Part shown: positions 68-9,617 of the stretch, one piece after another
How positions within the stretch are numbered: position 1 is the stretch's first letter
How the letters are laid out: the number at the start of each line of letters is the position of its first letter
Assembly (NCBI RefSeq): GCF_054482595.1
Contig: NZ_CM137008.1
Reading direction: 5' to 3' (one strand)
DNA: 64,000 nucleotides
The notes under the pieces: model-generated
Database searches by the model: none
What the model saw: the letters and a program-made list of their open reading frames with translations, nothing else
Told to the model about the DNA's origin: nothing
Made by a program: the position numbers and the translations under genes

Positions 68-349
68 TTAATCGTTTTTCTTTTGAATAACGAAGGTGGC
101 CAGACTATTGATACTGCGCATATAGGACGGGTCGTCACTTTCGCTGATCTTGATATCAAATACTTTATCCAGCAGAACGACAATTTCCGTTGCATCGACG
201 GAGTCCAGTTTAAAACCATTACCAAACAGCGCAGTATCATCATCAATTTGCGCTTCATCGCGTTGAATATTCAGTCGCTGGATGATCTCCGTTTTAATGG
301 TCATCAGAACTTCTTTACGCTGTTCAATAGCGTCATTCATGGTAGACAT
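68..349 (-). CDS. stand-alone acyl carrier protein
   Basis: 93-aa ORF; phosphopantetheine-attachment-like motif KLDSVDATEIVVLL (Ser in DSV) resembling ACP consensus DSLDTVEL; SD-like AAGAGAG upstream of ATG. Confidence 0.75.
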   Translation of the reverse strand: MSTMNDAIEQRKEVLMTIKTEIIQRLNIQRDEAQIDDDTALFGNGFKLDSVDATEIVVLLDKVFDIKISESDDPSYMRSINSLATFVIQKKND

Positions 350-370
350 AATATTTACTCTCTTATTGGA

Positions 371-919
371 TTACTTGGTTTCACGGAAATTGATAATGGT
401 GCCCTGACTAATCAGCTTTTTACCGACGTACGCGGTCACGGAATAGTGTTTAAAGCCACTGGCATCCGAAAAAGCCAATTTGCTGACAACATCAATAGAA
501 TCACCCGGATAGGCGATATCTTTAAATTTCAGGTTCTGAGCAGCCAGCACGCCGCGTACCTGGCTGCGCCGGGTACGGATAATCTCCAGCATTTCAGGGC
601 GGTGAATGCGTGCGTGAATATCACGTAACGACTTCAGCTCTTCCTCAAAACGTTCGCGCCAGATATCGCAAATGTCGGTCAGGAAAGAGAGATACTCGCT
701 GGCCTGGCCGAAGATTTCCGAAATAATCACCCCGGGCATAATCGGATCTTCCGGGAAATGCCCCAGTAGATACGGTTCGTTATAGGTGACGTGTTTCACG
801 ACACTGACAAAGCCATTTTCACCGTATTTATAATCTGCAATTTTATCGACCATCAGCAGCGGCTGACGCCAGCCGCCCATTTCGAGGAAGATTTTCGAAG
901 GAATCGTGTATTTAGACAT
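371..919 (-). CDS. 3-hydroxyacyl-ACP dehydratase, FabZ/FabA-like hotdog fold
   Basis: 182-aa ORF with LLGHFPEDPIMPGV motif matching the FabZ/FabA active-site His region; 3 bp from the upstream reductase stop. Confidence 0.7.
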   Translation of the reverse strand: MSKYTIPSKIFLEMGGWRQPLLMVDKIADYKYGENGFVSVVKHVTYNEPYLLGHFPEDPIMPGVIISEIFGQASEYLSFLTDICDIWRERFEEELKSLRDIHARIHRPEMLEIIRTRRSQVRGVLAAQNLKFKDIAYPGDSIDVVSKLAFSDASGFKHYSVTAYVGKKLISQGTIINFRETK

Positions 920-922
920 AAA

Positions 923-1684
923 TCACCGCATGACCAGGCCGCCATCGATAACGATGGTCTGGCCGACAATGTAGCTGGAGGCAGAGGAACTTAAGAAGAC
1001 GATGGTGTTCGCCACTTCTTCACATTTCCCCAGACGGCGTAACGGGATGGTACTGGTTACCGCACGGACCACTGCGCGGGATACTTTTTTCACCATTTTC
1101 GATTCAATCATTCCCGGTGCGACCGCGTTGACGCGCACGCCCCAAGGTGCCATTTCTGCTGCCAGCGTGCGGGTGAAGCCGAGGATCGCCCCTTTTGACG
1201 CGCTGTAATTCGCCTGACCGACGCTGGGGATCAGCGCTGCAATAGAGGCAACGTTAATAATGGCGGGATTTTCTGCCGCACGAAGCAGCATCAGCGCGTC
1301 TTTCGTCAGACGGAAAATGCTGAACATGTTGGTTTCGATAACCTGGGTGAAATCCTCATAGCTCATCGAGGCAAACAGGCTGTCTTTAACGATGCCCGCG
1401 TTATTCACCAGCACATCAATCTTGCCAGCTTCGCGCTCTATCTGTTCGCACAATGCGCTCACGCTCTGGGGGCAGGCGAGATCGCACTGCACAATATGCA
1501 GTTTATCGCCTGCCGGATGGCTTGCTTTCAGCGTCGTTAATTGCACGTCGTTGGATTTATAAAGCGCATAAACATCGCAGCTCTGCTCCAGATATTTTTC
1601 GCAAATACCCAGCCCAATATCACCACTGGCTCCTGTCACCAGTACGGTTTTTTCATTTAAATCATTATATTTGTACATATTCAT
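923..1684 (-). CDS. short-chain dehydrogenase/reductase, FabG-like 3-oxoacyl-ACP reductase
   Basis: Rossmann motif TGASGDIG and catalytic YSASK (YxxxK) in translation; start set at internal Met (MNMYKY) to avoid overlap with upstream gene; ORF track gives 923..1720. Confidence 0.75.
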   Translation of the reverse strand: MNMYKYNDLNEKTVLVTGASGDIGLGICEKYLEQSCDVYALYKSNDVQLTTLKASHPAGDKLHIVQCDLACPQSVSALCEQIEREAGKIDVLVNNAGIVKDSLFASMSYEDFTQVIETNMFSIFRLTKDALMLLRAAENPAIINVASIAALIPSVGQANYSASKGAILGFTRTLAAEMAPWGVRVNAVAPGMIESKMVKKVSRAVVRAVTSTIPLRRLGKCEEVANTIVFLSSSASSYIVGQTIVIDGGLVMR

Positions 1685-1697
1685 CACATATGTTGAG

Positions 1698-2066
1698 TTA
1701 ATAAACGATGACAGTCGCAATGGCGTGGGTACGGCAATGCGAAATACTCAGGGAGTTATTTTGCAACCCCTGCCCGATAAAAATTTCTTGTAGTCTTCCG
1801 GAAATAACGAAATAAGGTGCTTTGGCCGCATCATGCTTTATTTCAATATCCTGGAAACGTACGCCATCACGAAAACCACAACCAATCGCTTTAACTAACG
1901 CTTCTTTCGCCGCCCAGAATCCAGAAGCCCGTTCATAATCAGGTTCTGCAGGATTAATGAGTAAGCGCTCATGAGCAGTATAAACACGCTCATAAAAAGC
2001 CATCTCTCCATTAATAATGGCTTTGGTTATTCTGGCAATTTCAACAATATCTGTCCCTATTCTCAT
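1698..2066 (-). CDS. holo-ACP synthase (AcpS-family 4'-phosphopantetheinyl transferase)
   Basis: 122-aa ORF; [13 protein letters not shown] and [11 protein letters not shown] motifs align with E. coli AcpS ([21 protein letters not shown]). Confidence 0.8.
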
Positions 2067-2081
2067 TAGTCTCGTTATCCT

Positions 2082-3701
2082 TTACATTTGGTACGAAAAA
2101 TTAAAATTTACATTCACCCGATCAATATCTAATGTCGCCGGGTACTTTAATGGGGTAGAAACGGAAAAGTTATACTCAAGACTTTTTATGTTTCCATCAA
2201 TACCAACTGCCGCGCCCACCAGTGATTCATCGCCATAAGAAGCGTCCTGATACACTTGCCCAAAATCAAGACCGGCATAATAATTAGCTTTCATTCCAGG
2301 CAAAGGAAATGCCAGCGTGTTTTTTATATAAAAACCATCATTCCCTGACAAACCTACGCTATTTTCAAACCCGCGAATACTCCAACGATCGCCAACTGTA
2401 ATTTGATCTTGCAAAGTCAGTTCACGCGGTGCGTACTGGGCAAAAAAAGCGGTATTGTAATATCCATTCTCTATTTGTCGGGTATAGTTACCCTCAAAAT
2501 TAAAGATATTGCTTACCGGGCTAACGTCGCCATATTGCATATCCGGCGTTTTTTCACCACCGAACCAGGTTAAAAAGCGTTGCCACGAGAGGGTTGAATC
2601 CCAGAACTCGCCGGGTAACTGTTGCTTATAATTTAGCCCCAACTTGATATTTCCCATATCCCGCGCCTGTAATGTCAGCTCCTCACCATTAAGCGTGTAA
2701 TTCGACTTTCGTCGAATGAGTTCTGCACTCCCGGCGAATTTTTTTGTTTTATCGCGATAAACGGTACGCGTCGCCTTTGCGCTCAAGTATTCGCTGGTGC
2801 CAACATAATCCAGCGAGATGTACGAAAGCGGAATCACCTGCTGCGATTTACTTTTGCTATAGAAAAAGCCGTACTCCCAGTACCCCACCGGAATGGAATA
2901 ATAACTACTGACGTTTTCATACTGTCCGGTAGTACTACGCGTACCGGCGAGATAAAACAGATCCCCCATTTTCGCTGGATTAAACAGATAACCCACCGCG
3001 GTTGTCTGGTAACGGCCCGTTTCTTCATCGCCCCAATTATTGTAACTTGCCCGAACGCTCCAGTTTTTCCCCCGGTGTGTATCAATATGAACGATGCTGT
3101 AACCATCCCGTGTTCCCGGTTCAATATTAATTTTCACATCAACGTCAGGTACTCGCTGAAGATTTTCCAGCCCCTGTTCAATATCGCGAATATTGAGAAT
3201 ATCGTTACGCTGAAAAGGTAACATCCATTCACTGATATCATTACCTTCCACAATCGTTTTTTCTATCTTCCCGGCATTAACCTGGAAACGTAGCTTGCCT
3301 TTAGAAATATCCTGTGAAGGAATACTAATTCGCGTTGTGATATATCCGGCATTAATATAATAATCCTGCAAGGCAGCAGCAATTTTTTGCACACCAGCAC
3401 TACCGACACAGCGTCCGGTAACTGCTTTATGTACTTCAGAAATCAACTGACCACCCAGAAAGTTATCTTCCAGTTCAATCCGATTAATGATAAAGCAATT
3501 CTTTTCCTGCGGCAGATCACCCAGAGTAAACGCATTACGTTGTGCATTTGAGTAAACATCTTTTTTTTCTAATTTATGCGCGCGCAACGTGCTTTCATCT
3601 GCATTTTTTTGCTGCTTGATCAAATTATCAAGACTGTCTTTCGCTGCAACTTGAAAACAACAAAGAATGAGCAGCAAACCAAAATTAAATCGTAATTGCA
3701 T
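2082..3701 (-). CDS. two-partner secretion outer-membrane transporter, TpsB (ShlB/FhaC/HecB family)
   Basis: 539-aa ORF with N-terminal signal peptide, POTRA-like region and C-terminal beta-barrel with RGF-type motif (WSIRGFENS); ends in aromatic-rich C-terminus. Confidence 0.85.
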   Translation of the reverse strand: MQLRFNFGLLLILCCFQVAAKDSLDNLIKQQKNADESTLRAHKLEKKDVYSNAQRNAFTLGDLPQEKNCFIINRIELEDNFLGGQLISEVHKAVTGRCVGSAGVQKIAAALQDYYINAGYITTRISIPSQDISKGKLRFQVNAGKIEKTIVEGNDISEWMLPFQRNDILNIRDIEQGLENLQRVPDVDVKINIEPGTRDGYSIVHIDTHRGKNWSVRASYNNWGDEETGRYQTTAVGYLFNPAKMGDLFYLAGTRSTTGQYENVSSYYSIPVGYWEYGFFYSKSKSQQVIPLSYISLDYVGTSEYLSAKATRTVYRDKTKKFAGSAELIRRKSNYTLNGEELTLQARDMGNIKLGLNYKQQLPGEFWDSTLSWQRFLTWFGGEKTPDMQYGDVSPVSNIFNFEGNYTRQIENGYYNTAFFAQYAPRELTLQDQITVGDRWSIRGFENSVGLSGNDGFYIKNTLAFPLPGMKANYYAGLDFGQVYQDASYGDESLVGAAVGIDGNIKSLEYNFSVSTPLKYPATLDIDRVNVNFNFSYQM

Positions 3702-3789
3702 TATCTTCTCAAACTAAATAAAGACAGCAGCAACCCCTGCGTGACATGACGCATTAATATTAAAAGCCACTGCTGTCTTTGGTTACATC

Positions 3790-6700
3790 TTACATGCCGA
3801 CAATAGTACCGGTGTTATCAGTTTCGTTTGCTTCTAACGCTAAACCGTAGAAGCCACCGAGAACAGCGTCTTTACCGCTATTCGTAACCTTATTTGCCGA
3901 TACGACAGCGACACCATAACTCAGCATATTGAGGTAGTTATAAATATTACCGGTGGTTTTAACACCCAGAGAATAATCACCCACAATATTTCCACGGTTA
4001 TTAATGTCATTCACGGCATTGATCGCGATGGTTTGTCCCAACATATTACTGTTGCTGTTGTTGGTAACATACTTCTGCGTATCAATAGTCAGCGCAGTAC
4101 CCGCCACAATGTCTTTAAAGTTCTCAACACCGTTCAGGGCATTAATGGTCAGCGCGTTGTCCGCCGCGATGGCATTACGGTTATACAGCGTGCCTTTCAG
4201 AACATTGAAATGCACATCTCCTTTACCGCTGATCCAACCATAGTTAGTGACACTGTTATCAACGCTCAGATCCAGGTTTTTGTCAGACGCAATCACGCCA
4301 GTGGCGGTATTGTCTTCCAGGCGACCATCGCTGGCGTTGTTCAACGACGCCGCATAAACGTCGAGATTACCGGCGCTGTACGTGGTGGCATAGTTGTTGT
4401 AGAACGTCCCTGCCGCACGGATGATGGCATCAGCCCCACTGCTGAGGAGCGCGCGGGTATTATCCAGCGTTCCTTTGGATAGCAGATTAAGCGGACCATT
4501 TTCAGCGATGATGCTGCTGTTATTGTTGTTGACGTTCTGAGCAGAAAGCGTGACACCTTCTTTACCTACGATGCCGCCAACGTTGTCGGTGATCCCAAAC
4601 AGCGCGCCGTTATTACGCAGGAAGTTATTCCCGTCGCGGTTTTCGAGGTTGCCGCCAGCGTTAATAACCAGCTTTTTATTCGCCGCGATCAGCGCAGTGT
4701 TGTTGTAAATCGTCGATTTAGCATCGACAGAAACATTCTCACCGGCAATCAAACCATAGGCGTTGTCTACGATGTTCGCCGTCAGAGTCACGTCGCCCGT
4801 TTCAGAGGTCAGCGAACCCTTATAGCTGTCGTAGTTGCCCGTCAGTGCCAGCGTGACATCGCCATAACCACGAATTTCACCGTTATCGTTGTTCAGATTG
4901 TTGCCTTTAACAGACAACACGCCGTTCAACGCATGCAGATTACCGCGGTTGTTACCCACGTTACCCTTCGAATCGATAATCAGATCGCCTGTCGCTTCGA
5001 TGGTCGCGTTATTGTTCGCCACGCTATTTGCCGACAATGCGATATCCCCATACCCTACCATATAGAGATAGTTATACAGGTTGCCTTTGGTCGTCACGTT
5101 CAAGTCAGCGTCACTGACAATGTTGCCACGGTTGTTGATATCGTTAACCGCGTTAATAACAATATTCTGCCCCACCATATTGCTGTTGGAGTTGTTGGTC
5201 ACATGGCGATTGGTGTTCATCGTCAGGTCGCCGCCAGCAGAAATATCCTTCCAGTTTTCAATACCGTTCAACGCGGCAATATCCAGCCCCTTTTCAGCCG
5301 CAATGGTATTGCGGTTATACAGGTTGCCGTTATTCACCGTGACATCAACATCGCCTTTACCGCTGATCCAGCCGTAGTTGGTAAGGCTATTCACCACTTC
5401 CAGTGACAGGTTTTTATCAGATGCTATGAACCCGGTCGCATTGTTATCGATCATCGTACCGCTGCTGCTGTTTTGCAGCGTGGTCGCGTCGATATCCAGG
5501 TTGCCCGCACTCCAGGTGGTAGCGTAGTTGTTGTAATACGTTCCGCCAACCTGAATAGATGCATCCGCCCCGCTGGTGACCAGAGCACGCGTGTTGTCGA
5601 ACGTGTTCTGTGCCTGGAGAGTCAGAGGACCATCCTCAGCGATAAGACGACTGTTGTTGTTATAGATGTTCTGCCCGGAAAGCTCGATGCCTTCCTTGCC
5701 GACCATTCCACCCGTTTGCTGAGGCATGCCGAAGTACAGACCATAAGCGTTACCGAAGTTATTGCCATCGCGGTTTTCGATACTGCCGCGCGCATTTATC
5801 TTCAGTTTTTTGCTGGCCACGATCAGCGCTGTGTTGTTATTGACGCCAGACATCGACTCCATCGTGATGTTCTGCCCCATCATGAAGCCGCCGTGGTTGT
5901 CCACTGAGTTGGCTAACAGGGAGATATCACCTTCTTCAGAGCTGATCACGCCAATGTTATTGGTCAGGCTGCCGCCAACGGCGACTTCAATACCCTGCTT
6001 ACCGCTGATCCCCCCGGTATCGTTACGCAGTGAGCTTCCCTTGATAATCACTTTGCTGTTGGACAGAATTTTGCCCGCATAATCGTCGACCGTGCTGTAA
6101 CTTGACAGGGAGACGTTGCCATTAGACGCAATCTGTCCGCCGTTGTTATTGATGTTGTTCGCACCAATTTCTACGCCGGTATCTGCAATAATGCCCAGAG
6201 AGTCAGAACTGCCGGTATCGGCGGTTTTGGTTGAACCATTATTTACGCTACCTGCCGCACCAATAACGATATGCCCGGTGGACGAACGGATCAGACCTTT
6301 GTTGTTATCCACATTACCGTTACTGATAATGGCGATATCGCCGGTGGTCTGAATATCACCGTTGTTGTTATTCAACGCAGCGGATTCAAGACCCACATAA
6401 CCGCCGCGAATCTGACCATTGCTGTTGTTGAGCGTTCCGGTTTTCAGCGCCACGAGCCCCGCTTCAATCCCGACAGAACTCCCTTTACCAGAGTTAATCA
6501 GCGTGGCGTTATTGGTATCAACCGCCAGCATACCTGCTGCGGCGAGCTTGCCGTTGGTGTTATCAATCGTGCCACTGTTAACGTAGATATCGCCCATCGT
6601 GGAGATGTTACCCGCACGGGTATTCACGATAGTATTCTTGTTGGTATTGAGCGAGATAGTGCCTACAGATGTCACCGTACCGGTGGTGTTATCCAGAGTA

Positions 6701-7602
6701 CCATTTGTCGTCAGGTTGATCGTGCTTGCAGACTGAATCTGGGCGTTACTGTTTAACAGATTACCTTTGGAATCGATGCTGACACCATTAACCCCACCTG
6801 CGATAACGCCCAGGTTGCGAACCCCTACACCTTTCTCGGTGCTGACCAGACTGATTTTGTTCGCATACATTCCGCCCAGTTTGGCAACATCTACGCTGTA
6901 ACCGTTACGGTAACCCGTGGCGGATACGCTACCGGTTACCTGGCCTGCGGCGTTAACATAGTTATTACCAGCAACAACGTTCAGCTCATCGGCAGACACT
7001 TTGCCGTTAACCACCACGTTACGGGACAGAATTTCTGTCGGGCTGGCGTTATCCAGTTTACCGAGCGTAATGGTACCGCCGTTCACGGAGTAACCGGCCA
7101 GCTTGTCATCCTGGATATCCGGCGTCCCGGTGGTTAAGGTCAGTTTACCTGTATTGATTGAACCGCCACCGTTTACAGTAATACCATTCGGGTTGGCAAT
7201 AATCAGATCCGCTTTATCCCCTGCAACTTCCATCATCCCATTAATGGTTGAAGGATTTTTGGAAGTAACCTCATTCAGGATCACCTTCGCCGACCCAGAG
7301 GTCAGATTACTGTTTCCCTGAATATTTCCGGCAAGTGAAGTATTGGATTCATTAGCGCTGTTATTGAAAACGACACCATTTTTATCAACGTTTAGGTTAT
7401 CCCAGATATTATGAGATAAACCGCTACCGTTAGGTTTGTTGATATCAACGACTGGCACACCATTGGCGTTATATACCGTTCCATTTTTTATGACTAATCC
7501 CGCCGCTTGAGAAGCTACAGGAAAAGACAACATCATAAGTATAGCAATAGGGGTTAATGCTTTACCCACCGTTGCTTCCTTACTTAAATTTATCATCGCC
7601 AC
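3790..7602 (-). CDS. filamentous haemagglutinin/haemolysin-like TpsA exoprotein
   Basis: 1270-aa ORF; extended signal peptide, TPS secretion domain with ANPNGITVNGG motif, Asn/Gly/Thr-rich beta-helix repeats; no distinct C-terminal toxin domain visible. Confidence 0.85.
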   Translation of the reverse strand: MAMINLSKEATVGKALTPIAILMMLSFPVASQAAGLVIKNGTVYNANGVPVVDINKPNGSGLSHNIWDNLNVDKNGVVFNNSANESNTSLAGNIQGNSNLTSGSAKVILNEVTSKNPSTINGMMEVAGDKADLIIANPNGITVNGGGSINTGKLTLTTGTPDIQDDKLAGYSVNGGTITLGKLDNASPTEILSRNVVVNGKVSADELNVVAGNNYVNAAGQVTGSVSATGYRNGYSVDVAKLGGMYANKISLVSTEKGVGVRNLGVIAGGVNGVSIDSKGNLLNSNAQIQSASTINLTTNGTLDNTTGTVTSVGTISLNTNKNTIVNTRAGNISTMGDIYVNSGTIDNTNGKLAAAGMLAVDTNNATLINSGKGSSVGIEAGLVALKTGTLNNSNGQIRGGYVGLESAALNNNNGDIQTTGDIAIISNGNVDNNKGLIRSSTGHIVIGAAGSVNNGSTKTADTGSSDSLGIIADTGVEIGANNINNNGGQIASNGNVSLSSYSTVDDYAGKILSNSKVIIKGSSLRNDTGGISGKQGIEVAVGGSLTNNIGVISSEEGDISLLANSVDNHGGFMMGQNITMESMSGVNNNTALIVASKKLKINARGSIENRDGNNFGNAYGLYFGMPQQTGGMVGKEGIELSGQNIYNNNSRLIAEDGPLTLQAQNTFDNTRALVTSGADASIQVGGTYYNNYATTWSAGNLDIDATTLQNSSSGTMIDNNATGFIASDKNLSLEVVNSLTNYGWISGKGDVDVTVNNGNLYNRNTIAAEKGLDIAALNGIENWKDISAGGDLTMNTNRHVTNNSNSNMVGQNIVINAVNDINNRGNIVSDADLNVTTKGNLYNYLYMVGYGDIALSANSVANNNATIEATGDLIIDSKGNVGNNRGNLHALNGVLSVKGNNLNNDNGEIRGYGDVTLALTGNYDSYKGSLTSETGDVTLTANIVDNAYGLIAGENVSVDAKSTIYNNTALIAANKKLVINAGGNLENRDGNNFLRNNGALFGITDNVGGIVGKEGVTLSAQNVNNNNSSIIAENGPLNLLSKGTLDNTRALLSSGADAIIRAAGTFYNNYATTYSAGNLDVYAASLNNASDGRLEDNTATGVIASDKNLDLSVDNSVTNYGWISGKGDVHFNVLKGTLYNRNAIAADNALTINALNGVENFKDIVAGTALTIDTQKYVTNNSNSNMLGQTIAINAVNDINNRGNIVGDYSLGVKTTGNIYNYLNMLSYGVAVVSANKVTNSGKDAVLGGFYGLALEANETDNTGTIVGM
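3853..5907 (-). repeat. internal tandem duplication inside tpsA (two diverged ~1.13 kb units)
   Basis: Protein residues ~566-872 and ~944-1250 align (e.g. NNTALIVASKKLKINARGSIENRDGNNF vs NNTALIAANKKLVINAGGNLENRDGNNF; TNYGWISGKGDV in both); DNA segments near 4180-4330 and 5285-5440 are visibly similar. Confidence 0.6.
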
Positions 7603-7863
7603 TAACGTTTTCCTTATTGATGCTATTCATTTTGGACATGCAGATCACTTTTGATGACTCACGGAATATCAGCAAAAATGATTGCGGCAAATCCTATCAC
7701 CAGGCGCAATAAAAAATCACGAAAAATAAGCTGAAATAAGGACTCAAAAAACAACTAAGAGTTATTGTTTTTTCATCGAACGGCGAAGTACCTAACTTAC
7801 TAAAACACAATAATTTAAAAGTTTCCCATCCTTCCTCCTTGGGTGAAAAAAATCCAATTTAGA

Positions 7864-7914
7864 GGATGTCTGAAATGATATGTAGTTTTCTGTACGACAT
7901 CATTTCAGACATCC
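7864..7914. repeat. perfect 16-bp inverted repeat (GGATGTCTGAAATGAT / ATCATTTCAGACATCC) with 19-bp spacer
   Basis: Read directly from sequence at 7864-7879 and 7899-7914; lies ~260 bp upstream of tpsA start in a 1.4 kb AT-rich intergenic region. Confidence 0.6.
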
Positions 7915-8993
7915 GAATAAAACAACAAAGTTGGTGAGCTACAATTAATTTAAATCTTGTCATTTGATTAACAAAGCATCAGCATTACTGCATCTTATTC
8001 TCTATATCTTTTACGTCGGGGTAGATTCGTTATGGTCATTACGGGCAGGCACCATTTCATTATATTACCATTTGCATTCACGCTTGTAACCCTTAAGAGT
8101 TATATAAAAGGAAATAGTTCTTGCTCATGGTAATACTGAGATCGGATTAACCATGAGGTTAGCTATATAGAGAGAGCTTTGGCTTTGCGACAATTGGCTT
8201 AAGCAGCCACATTATGTCTGGCTTATCGTTGAAAGATAGAAAGATGGGCAAAACGGTTTTACAAGGTTTCATTCCCATCTAATAGCAATCACCGCTATAC
8301 ATCATCCCTTAACGTACTCTGGCCTTCATAAAAATGTTATTCAAAATTAAAGATTGTAATGATTTTCATAATGTTGTTATTATTTTGCAACAAATAAATC
8401 TAACACAATGATTATTAGCTATTTTTTATTAGTTAAGAGGAGTTGTTTTTTACAGACTGCGCTATAATTCCGCTCATTTTTCACCACAGGAAAAGCTGAA
8501 GTAATCTTAAATGACTGTATTAACCCTTTTCTCCGCTGCCAGCACTCTTATATATCGTTGTTTTATTCTTATAAAAATGGTTTTTTTGACATAAAAAGTA
8601 ATAGGTTCAGCCATTATGCAGAATTTACAACCTGATAAAATCGCAAAAACCCTCCTTACCCAGAATAAAAATCTGATCATCATCTTTCGGTAAGAATTAA
8701 ATTACTATATTACCGTTCAACATCAGTATGAATGAAAATTCAATTGTTATACATGTGATGAATGTCATATATTGTGCTCATCGATTGCAGGACATCGCTA
8801 TTCTTTTAGAGATACAGATATCACGCTGTTACTCTCTATATAAAGAACACACAAAGATTAGTTGTGTTACTGCAGTTGTTATGTCGCATATGGAAAGCCC
8901 ATTGTTACATCTTTAGTAAAAAGATTTATTCACTTTCAAAATTTTTACTGCATGAAGATGGGCTGTTTTGCTGCAAGCAATTGAGTTAGTGCA

Positions 8994-9617
8994 ATGAACA
9001 AGAACTTACTAACAAGGGTAATTATCATTTCGGATGATCTATATTACCTTCAGGGATTAAGTGCAAAACTAGGTCACCATTATCGTTTTTTTATTGAGTG
9101 TTTTTTTTGTTCTCAAAATGCATGTAATAATGACCTAAGTACACTTAGATTTGATAACCGCTTTACCAAAAACGTACTTCTTGTCGCAGTGGATGACGTA
9201 AGTATACTTGCAAAACTGCCAGATTTGGCCAGGTTTTTAATGATTGTTTCACTAAGAAAGATGAAAAACAGAAATATCTTCTTTTCACTTTCAGAGCAAA
9301 CATTCATTAGCCGATATATAAAATTGAATAAACTCATTACTTTGATTAAAAGCACTGATAAAGACCAGCAAGTCAGGCAGGTGACTCTGACAAGGTATGA
9401 GTGGGATATCTATTACTTATATTTTAAGATAGATAACAAAAGAATATTGCACACCCTGCTAAAAAAGGATGTCAAGTATATTAGTCACTATAAAATATCA
9501 GTTTTTAACAAGTTTGAAATTGCTTGTGATAGTGATGGCTTTTACATTTTCAAGGCACTTATACAGTTAAGGAGATTTACCGGTTTTAAAAACGTCAGAT
9601 TGTATCAATTGCATTAA
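8994..9617 (+). CDS. putative fimbrial operon regulator (LuxR/MatA-like, tentative)
   Basis: 207-aa AT-rich ORF immediately upstream of the pilin gene; C-terminal LTRYEWDIYYL...ISVFNKFEI loosely resembles a LuxR-type HTH; architecture parallels ecpR/matA-type regulators; weak. Confidence 0.4.
   Translation: MNKNLLTRVIIISDDLYYLQGLSAKLGHHYRFFIECFFCSQNACNNDLSTLRFDNRFTKNVLLVAVDDVSILAKLPDLARFLMIVSLRKMKNRNIFFSLSEQTFISRYIKLNKLITLIKSTDKDQQVRQVTLTRYEWDIYYLYFKIDNKRILHTLLKKDVKYISHYKISVFNKFEIACDSDGFYIFKALIQLRRFTGFKNVRLYQLH

Follow-up and report, generated by a model that had tools for sequence, protein, structure and literature searches.

A diverged 378-codon tandem duplication in otpA, the exoprotein gene of the Escherichia coli OtpAB two-partner secretion system

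How does a secreted protein come to carry the same several hundred residues twice, how long has it done so, and do the two copies change its length by recombination? These questions are raised by otpA, the gene for the TpsA exoprotein of the OtpAB two-partner secretion (TPS) system, which lies at positions 3790–7602 of a 64,000-nucleotide (nt) stretch of DNA from NCBI RefSeq assembly GCF_054482595.1, contig NZ_CM137008.1 (hereafter the window). An earlier note on this DNA had described a diverged tandem duplication of ~1.13 kb inside a tpsA gene, and our analysis confirmed it: the period is 1134 nt, the alignment of the two copies is free of gaps, and their similarity lies far above that of shuffled sequences (z = 30.9). 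We consider it very likely that an in-frame stretch of 378 codons, about 18 coils of a beta-helix, was duplicated once in the distant past, that both copies have been retained, and that they collapse into a single one rarely and in register.

Extent and predicted structure of the duplication

Comparison of OtpA with itself and with its relatives divides the gene into the following parts, given in the order in which they are translated (aa, amino acids of OtpA; ORF, open reading frame; HMM, hidden Markov model built from both units):

3790–7602, minus strand: otpA coding sequence, 1270 aa plus stop codon, TpsA exoprotein of OtpAB (ORF list, translation, and nt match).
6757–7479, minus strand: TPS secretion domain, aa 42–282 (PF05860, TIGR01901, and matches to PDB sequences).
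6049–6756, minus strand: unduplicated beta-helix stalk, aa 283–518, with coils of ~21 aa (autocorrelation and, from aa 471, also the AlphaFold2 model).
5014–6048, minus strand: core of repeat unit 1, aa 519–863 (ungapped alignment to unit 2; match to HMM positions 1–345).
4915–5013, minus strand: inter-unit segment, aa 864–896 (alignment, unit coordinates, and strands of the model).
3880–4914, minus strand: core of repeat unit 2, aa 897–1241 (ungapped alignment and HMM match).
3793–3879, minus strand: C-terminal tail, aa 1242–1270, the end of the beta-helix (single-unit relatives; strands up to the last residues).

The two units form one in-frame head-to-tail duplication whose period is exactly 1134 nt (378 aa) and whose alignment has no gap, and two full periods extend over ~3793–6060. 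Five separate repeat families recovered by a repeat search (D2, D6, D7, D8, and D18) all had a start-to-start spacing of 1134 nt. When the protein was compared with itself, the best 100-aa window at an offset of 378 aa contained 71 identities, and no other offset gave more than 27. The aligned cores scored 1037 with the BLOSUM62 matrix against −233 ± 41 for shuffled sequences (z = 30.9), and all other registers of OtpA, which served as a control for its asparagine- and glycine-rich composition and its short coil periodicity, scored 2 or less. The self-comparison that the earlier note had proposed as a check thus found significant similarity between the segments, solely at the 378-aa offset, and the arrangement is that of a segmental tandem duplication: two adjacent copies, one long period, and collinear similarity above background. 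Identity between the cores was 58.8% for amino acids (203/345) and 61.7% for nucleotides; for amino acids it was 55.0% across the whole 378-aa period and 65.1% in the best-conserved 261 aa. The longest in-register identical run between the units was 17 nt. The figure of ~65% identity given earlier holds for those 261 aa, the core figure being 59%. The span given with it, 3853–5907 (aa 566–1250), leaves out ~140 nt (~47 residues) at the 5′ end of unit 1, and the units, taken before to be two thirds of TpsA, together make up 54–60% of OtpA.

Position 5907 is the end of an antisense ORF and not a repeat boundary. Plus-strand ORFs of 98–161 aa lie antisense to otpA at 4033–4482, 4933–5406, 5473–5907, 5762–6082, and 6271–6756; they most likely arise as a side effect of codon composition in this repeat-rich gene. 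Tandem Repeats Finder, run on positions 3000–8500, returned only a 9-nt repeat in otpB; the otpA duplication escapes it because periods above 500 are beyond its limit and the units are only 62% identical.

The inter-unit segment (aa 864–896) is weakly similar both to the coil that precedes unit 1 (aa 486–518) and to the C-terminal tail, and probably holds the duplication junction. The tails of two single-unit relatives, P0041 and P0042, have an identity of 0.55–0.68 to OtpA aa 1219–1270 versus 0.28–0.30 to aa 841–892; from these alignments, the OtpA tail (aa 1242–1270) is the one that single-unit relatives also carry, and not a counterpart of the segment following unit 1.

We modelled OtpA aa 471–1270 with AlphaFold2 using 68 aligned sequences (mean predicted local distance difference test score, pLDDT, 96.9; predicted template modelling score, pTM, 0.84). 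The model has three short strands per coil throughout, including the inter-unit segment and up to the last residue. Autocorrelation peaks at offsets of 21, 43, and 64 indicate a sequence periodicity of 21 aa, and 378 aa therefore correspond to ~18 coils. The two units are thus predicted to form one continuous right-handed beta-helix without an effector domain, the fold of a beta-helical passenger. Prediction of the structure, which had been proposed as a further check, gave beta-helix over the whole of the modelled region. Two features interrupt the regular coils, and each occurs twice at a distance of 378 residues: an alpha-helical insertion (model residues 143–154 and 521–529; OtpA aa 613–624 and 991–999) and a loop (model residues 242–254 and 620–632). 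In the helical insertion, the family motif YFGMPQQ.GG..G.EG is kept in unit 1, and unit 2 has LFGITDNVGGIVGKEG. At 14 positions, the two units have unit-specific residues, each conserved across genera. No separate C-terminal domain was seen in the AlphaFold2 model, and Pfam searches with OtpA gave only TPS and Fil_haemagg matches. OtpA has no VENN motif, and its one VDNN, at aa 431, belongs to the stalk. The statement that the protein has no separate C-terminal effector and is not of the CdiA type is therefore borne out by the domain searches, the model, the missing VENN motif, and the position of otpB as the next gene.

Age, constraint, and family distribution of the unit

Identity between units 1 and 2 by codon position was 70%, 77%, and 37%, the expectation from composition being 29% at third positions. 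The nonsynonymous divergence (dN) between them was 0.32, and the synonymous divergence (dS) was saturated (undefined by NG86, without a value by YN00, 2.4 by LWL85). Because third-position identity is near that expected from composition and dS is saturated, the duplication must be old. When this otpA was compared with a divergent allele that also encodes 1270 aa (P0002, locus L010), dN/dS was lowest in the TPS domain (0.046), followed by the stalk (0.057), unit 1 (0.071), and unit 2 (0.082). These ratios point to strong purifying selection on both units, which appear as constrained as the TPS domain.

To place the unit in its family, we used the best 120 of 974 relatives found in a database search. 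The unit HMM matched once, always at the C-terminal end, in each homologue of 847–935 aa (from Kosakonia, Mixta, Pantoea, Klebsiella, Leclercia, Rahnella, Buttiauxella, and others), and twice in proteins of 1268–1301 aa from Escherichia, Enterobacter, and Aeromonas. The comparison of copy number across relatives suggested in the earlier note therefore separates one-unit from two-unit forms by length. E. coli-like forms have a period of 378 aa; in those of Enterobacter and Aeromonas it is 399–401 aa, owing to one additional 21-aa coil in the inter-unit segment. A neighbour-joining tree groups the units by position, with one clade for every unit 1 and one for every unit 2, and these clades span E. 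coli, Enterobacter, Aeromonas, and Izhakiella. The single-unit proteins of 847–935 aa fall outside both, except P0041/P0042 and P0044/P0045, which are placed at the base of the clades. Orthologous units are closer to each other than paralogous units, and this, together with the position-specific clades, argues for one duplication before the two-unit lineages split. On the scheme that we favour, the 18-coil C-terminal module would have been duplicated once, before the two-unit lineages of Escherichia, Enterobacter, Aeromonas, and Izhakiella diverged.

Of 39 columns conserved at 90% or more in 52 single-unit relatives, 38 are retained in unit 1 and 35 in unit 2. An exhaustive search of 1.84 billion representative proteins with unit 1 gave 82 clusters at E ≤ 0.001; apart from a handful of full-length family members, these are fragments or giant FhaB/CdiA-like proteins matched at ~27% identity through generic coils. 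Judged by these comparisons, the unit is the conserved C-terminal module of a narrow family, most members of which carry it once, and single-unit relatives are widespread in Enterobacterales. The earlier suggestion of a mere stalk gives way here to a conserved family module that is under purifying selection. What is added to the description of OtpA is that its C-terminal 60% consists of a family-specific 18-coil module present twice, the doubling being ancient and selectively maintained.

Single-unit chimeras, partial-unit variants, and recombination

Two E. coli alleles, P0007 and P0008, encode 892 aa, that is, 1270 − 378, and each occurs in two assemblies, where otpA and otpB are arranged as usual. 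Both are 97–100% identical to OtpA, in the register of unit 1 before a switch and in the register of unit 2 after it, and the switch points differ. The DNA of the P0007 allele, from two sequencing runs (L004 and L005), has a clean single change from unit-1 to unit-2 diagnostic bases. The two copies of the P0008 allele (L002 and L003) differ at 3 positions in 4387 nt. A third case, P0035, is a metagenomic protein of 893 aa from a more distant lineage, which passes from unit 1 to unit 2 at aa 740–753, in the TNYGWISGKGDV block. The corresponding sites, in window coordinates unless a locus is named, are:

5768–5780, minus strand, partner 4634–4646: crossover of P0007 in a 13-nt identity, TCGAAAACCGCGA on the gene strand (breakpoint mapping, L004 and L005).
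5567–5571, minus strand, partner 4433–4437: best-fit crossover of P0008 in a 5-nt identity, GGGGC, an interval less certain than the other as the lineage is ~4% divergent from this otpA (breakpoint mapping, L002 and L003).
5354–5370, minus strand, partner 4220–4236: longest in-register identical run, 17 nt, within the TNYGWISGKGDV codons (aa 741–752 and 1119–1130; run list, family D6).
L004 5466–7085 and L005 4554–6173: otpB of the P0007 strains, with the nonsense change TGG to TAG at codon 379.

From their sequences, the three collapsed alleles look like independent and precise 1134-bp deletions at places where the units are locally most alike. They would be a clean natural case of exact deletion between repeats of 62% identity at very short common stretches, and could provide natural constructs with which to probe the role of the module.

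Such alleles are rare. The cluster of full-length OtpA has 1460 members, and those of P0007 and P0008 have 1 each. No collapsed allele was found in the 381 complete E. coli genomes that are otpA-positive, in 379 of which the match covers the full gene. When the whole collapsed allele was used as the query, all matches, among those listed, consisted of two pieces spanning 3813 nt; short junction-spanning megablast queries were non-discriminating, with alignments that continue through the paralogous unit at 82–86% identity. No three-unit form was seen among the relatives examined, the longest family member having 1301 aa. Efficient RecA recombination in E. coli reportedly needs about 23–27 bp of identity (Shen and Huang, in 1986). 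At 62% nt identity, and with a longest common run of 17 nt that is below that length, the units are unlikely to undergo ordinary RecA-dependent exchange, and we infer that short-homology illegitimate recombination or replication slippage is the likelier route to collapse. The divergent copies would thus recombine in register only rarely, with an exact loss of 1134 bp that leaves a single chimeric unit in a protein of 892 or 893 aa.

Parts of units have been lost as well. A variant of 1231 aa has a unit 2 without HMM positions 260–294, one of 1205 aa a unit 1 without positions 231–314, one of 1129 aa a unit 2 without the first 112–123 positions, and one of 1023 aa, from Izhakiella, a unit 2 reduced to the last 142 positions. 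These partial-unit variants (P0034, P0037–P0040, P0043, and P0006) come from Enterobacter, Izhakiella, and other contigs, and the loss amounts to ~2 to 12 coils. They appear to derive from two-unit forms, and deletion of a block of coils seems to have happened several times in the family. Of the proposal that the repeat drives length variation by recombination, what stands is that single-unit chimeras and partial-unit variants exist; frequent or ongoing variation is not what we found, given the 62% nt identity, the 17-nt run, and 0 collapsed alleles in 381 genomes.

Several observations weigh against the history proposed here. The inter-unit segment resembles neither of its candidate parents well, and the junction cannot be located within it. 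The original period may have been either 378 or 399 aa, to judge from the present forms, and the tree of the units is a simple neighbour-joining tree without support values. The chimeric alleles all come from short-read or metagenome assemblies, and none from the 381 complete genomes. The otpB gene beside P0007 has a nonsense codon (W379, TGG to TAG) that leaves ORFs of 378 and 152 aa; by its sequence the TPS locus of these strains is probably inactivated, and the collapse of P0007 may be decay of a dead locus and not adaptive variation. The otpB beside P0008 (L002 and L003) is intact. Finally, a benefit of the doubling through rod length, a second binding surface, or both is conjectural.

Two other accounts of the repeat have to be set against an old segmental duplication with rare collapse. 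Generic coil periodicity together with an asparagine- and glycine-rich composition could give internal similarity with no segmental duplication at all, and OtpA does have 15% Asn and 13% Gly, a 21-aa periodicity, and many short repeat families at other spacings. However, only the 378-aa offset scores (1037 against 2 or less elsewhere), 345 aa align without gaps at 59% identity, and orthologues share the two-unit architecture, so that this account retains practically no probability; generic short-coil periodicity as the sole source of the repeat is ruled out by the offset and register scores. The locus could instead be an active contingency locus, in which frequent RecA-dependent unequal crossing-over produces size and antigenic variants. 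The three independent in-register chimeras and the four sizes of partial-unit variant from two-unit forms are what such a locus might leave behind, but the low nt identity, the short common run, the full-length gene in 379 of the 381 complete genomes with no collapsed one, the lack of a three-unit form, and the 1460 full-length cluster members against 1 for each collapsed E. coli allele make it very unlikely. The low nt identity and the lack of frequent copy-number differences set the otpA repeat apart from repeats of the contingency type. An old duplication with rare in-register collapse remains the reading that we prefer.

OtpAB, its gene neighbourhood, and known systems

The gene has a GTG start and a coding sequence of 3813 nt. 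It matched E. coli XH990 with 100% nt identity (megablast), and the locus matched ECs_1282/ECs_1283 of E. coli O157:H7 Sakai with 98.5% nt identity over 4001 nt, with the same 3813-nt coding sequence and the same neighbours, as expected for an orthologue of the published OtpA (ECs1282). The gene is carried by 381 of 5426 complete genomes. It had not been recognised as the published otpA in the earlier note. The TPS domain (aa 42–282) matched PF05860 with E = 3.6e-41 and 142 bits (cut-off 33.5) and also TIGR01901; its closest PDB sequences are the secretion domains of FHA and HpmA (E = 2e-35 and 3e-33), and all other Pfam matches in OtpA were Fil_haemagg repeats. An NPNG motif at aa 137 and a Sec signal peptide ending in ...SQA at aa 31–33 complete the features of a type Vb TpsA protein. 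The partner gene and the genes that follow it are arranged as follows:

2082–3701, minus strand: otpB, 539 aa, TpsB outer-membrane transporter (Pfam; Sakai ECs_1283).
68–3701 and beyond the window start, minus strand: otpB and a block of lipid/polyketide-like genes (also in loci L001, L006, L007, L008, and L011).

The otpB gene lies 88 nt downstream of otpA on the same strand, in the order A-B, and its product has two POTRA domains and a ShlB-type beta-barrel (ShlB, E = 3e-69; POTRA_2, E = 3.6e-16; POTRA_3, E = 1e-13). The TPS domain and the downstream POTRA/ShlB protein therefore identify a two-partner secretion pair. OtpAB was reportedly characterised as a genuine two-partner secretion system by Choi, Dawson and Bernstein in 2007. 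A preprint and a TPS review name ECs1282-1283 otpAB (the preprint, citing Choi et al. 2007), credit OtpB-dependent secretion of OtpA to Choi et al. 2007 and Choi and Bernstein 2009 (both sources), and list OtpA in a table as an E. coli TpsA with function given as unknown (the review, crediting Choi et al. 2007). Hence otpA encodes the exoprotein of a system, OtpAB, already known from E. coli O157:H7. The 378-aa duplication was not described in the literature mentioning these genes, a check that did not extend to the primary OtpA papers of 2007 and 2009.

Downstream of otpB, tightly packed on the same strand, lie genes for an AcpS-like phosphopantetheinyl transferase, a FabG-like reductase, a FabZ/ApeI-like dehydratase, an acyl carrier protein (ACP), a GcvT-like aminomethyltransferase, a fused double ketosynthase, and one more ketosynthase. 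At the Sakai locus these are followed by an ABC-transporter ATPase and permease and several hypothetical genes. E. coli shares its gene order from otpA to the ketosynthases with Enterobacter (L006), Aeromonas veronii (L007), and Kosakonia (L008, with a single-unit homologue), and the upstream neighbours of otpA differ in each of these genera. An operon-like structure at the Sakai locus was already noted in an early comparative-genomics paper. This gene order suggests that the TPS pair belongs to a single conserved, lipid/polyketide-like operon. This linkage is the best clue to the function of OtpA and a more useful lead than the duplication itself, and it could eventually explain what the protein does.

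On the other side of otpA, positions 7603–8993 (~1.39 kb) contain no ORF of 80 aa or more and separate the gene from a divergent chaperone-usher fimbrial operon (plus strand, 8994 onward). This is long for an intergenic region of E. coli and presumably regulatory; a scan of 3600–9100 for consensus promoters and terminators gave counts no higher than in shuffled sequence. In Aeromonas veronii, a second TPS pair lies directly upstream of the otpA homologue on the opposite strand (L007 1–6049); its A protein of at least 2939 aa has TPS, Fil_haemagg_2, and DUF637 domains and is CdiA-like.

Doubling of the module would lengthen the rod by ~18 × 4.8 Å, roughly 8–9 nm at the usual rise of 4.8 Å per coil, and would display its surface twice, including the helical insertion, the loop, and the TNYGWISGKGD coil. 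The altered insertion motif of unit 2 and the 14 conserved unit-specific positions leave room for some divergence of function between the units. It is doubtful that the units have diverged so far (for example, to different ligands) that two-unit OtpA is bifunctional and not merely longer: both units are constrained, the 14 positions hold across genera, and unit 1 keeps the family motif where unit 2 has LFGITDNVGGIVGKEG, but family-invariant residues are nearly all kept in both units (38/39 and 35/39), no ligand is recorded for any family member, and the natural chimeras, whose function is putative, keep the reading frame, P0008 with an intact otpB. A disguised CdiA- or haemolysin-like effector in the C-terminal region, with a toxic or pore-forming domain doubled, would fit a TPS domain nearest to the secretion domains of FHA and HpmA/ShlA, a transporter of the ShlB family, and the GenBank label of the Sakai gene, 'hemagglutinin/hemolysin-related'. 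It is highly improbable given a plain beta-helix to the end of the model, the order A-B, and the absence from OtpA and its locus of VENN, FHA-2/DUF637, and toxin Pfam domains and of an immunity-like ORF. According to the preprint, which cites Choi et al. 2007, OtpA groups neither with haemolysins nor with adhesins, the two subtypes considered, and the adhesin or haemolysin-like character proposed in the earlier note is thus not established. The one function that the neighbourhood suggests to us is itself a rather improbable one: the unit would be the working part of OtpA and not a spacer, and could carry, bind, or be modified by a lipid or polyketide product, with two sites in two-unit proteins and the TPS pair as the export arm of an undescribed secreted lipid-protein system. 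The reading that we keep is that of an ancient doubling of a constrained module.

Internal duplications are common in beta-helical exoproteins, and that of otpA is an ordinary evolutionary feature of a known one. OtpA/OtpB of O157:H7 is the same gene pair, with the same 1270 aa and no system-level difference. EtpA, the TpsA adhesin of enterotoxigenic E. coli (PDB 8VBA/8VBB), has 15% identity to OtpA in the aligned part, and a Foldseek comparison of the two was not significant. EtpA needs the glycosyltransferase EtpC, whereas the otpAB locus has lipid-synthesis genes downstream. CdiA shares with OtpA the N-terminal TPS domain, the beta-helical shaft, and the TpsB partner. In contrast to CdiA, OtpA has neither a pretoxin (VENN) boundary with an FHA-2/DUF637 region nor a variable C-terminal toxin, as judged by Pfam, motif, and model. 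No cdiI immunity gene lies directly downstream of otpA, where otpB and then the acpS-like gene are found, and the order is A-B and not the B-A-I of CdiA systems. Proteins of the FHA/FhaB type (Pfam Fil_haemagg, TIGR01731) resemble OtpA in their TPS domain and coil repeats of ~20 aa, and the OtpA unit matches many stretches of giant FhaB/CdiA-like proteins at ~27% identity. However, FHA/FhaB-type proteins have 2000–5500 aa against the 1270 aa of OtpA, and their repeats are single coils of ~20 aa, whereas in OtpA a block of 18 coils has been duplicated once.

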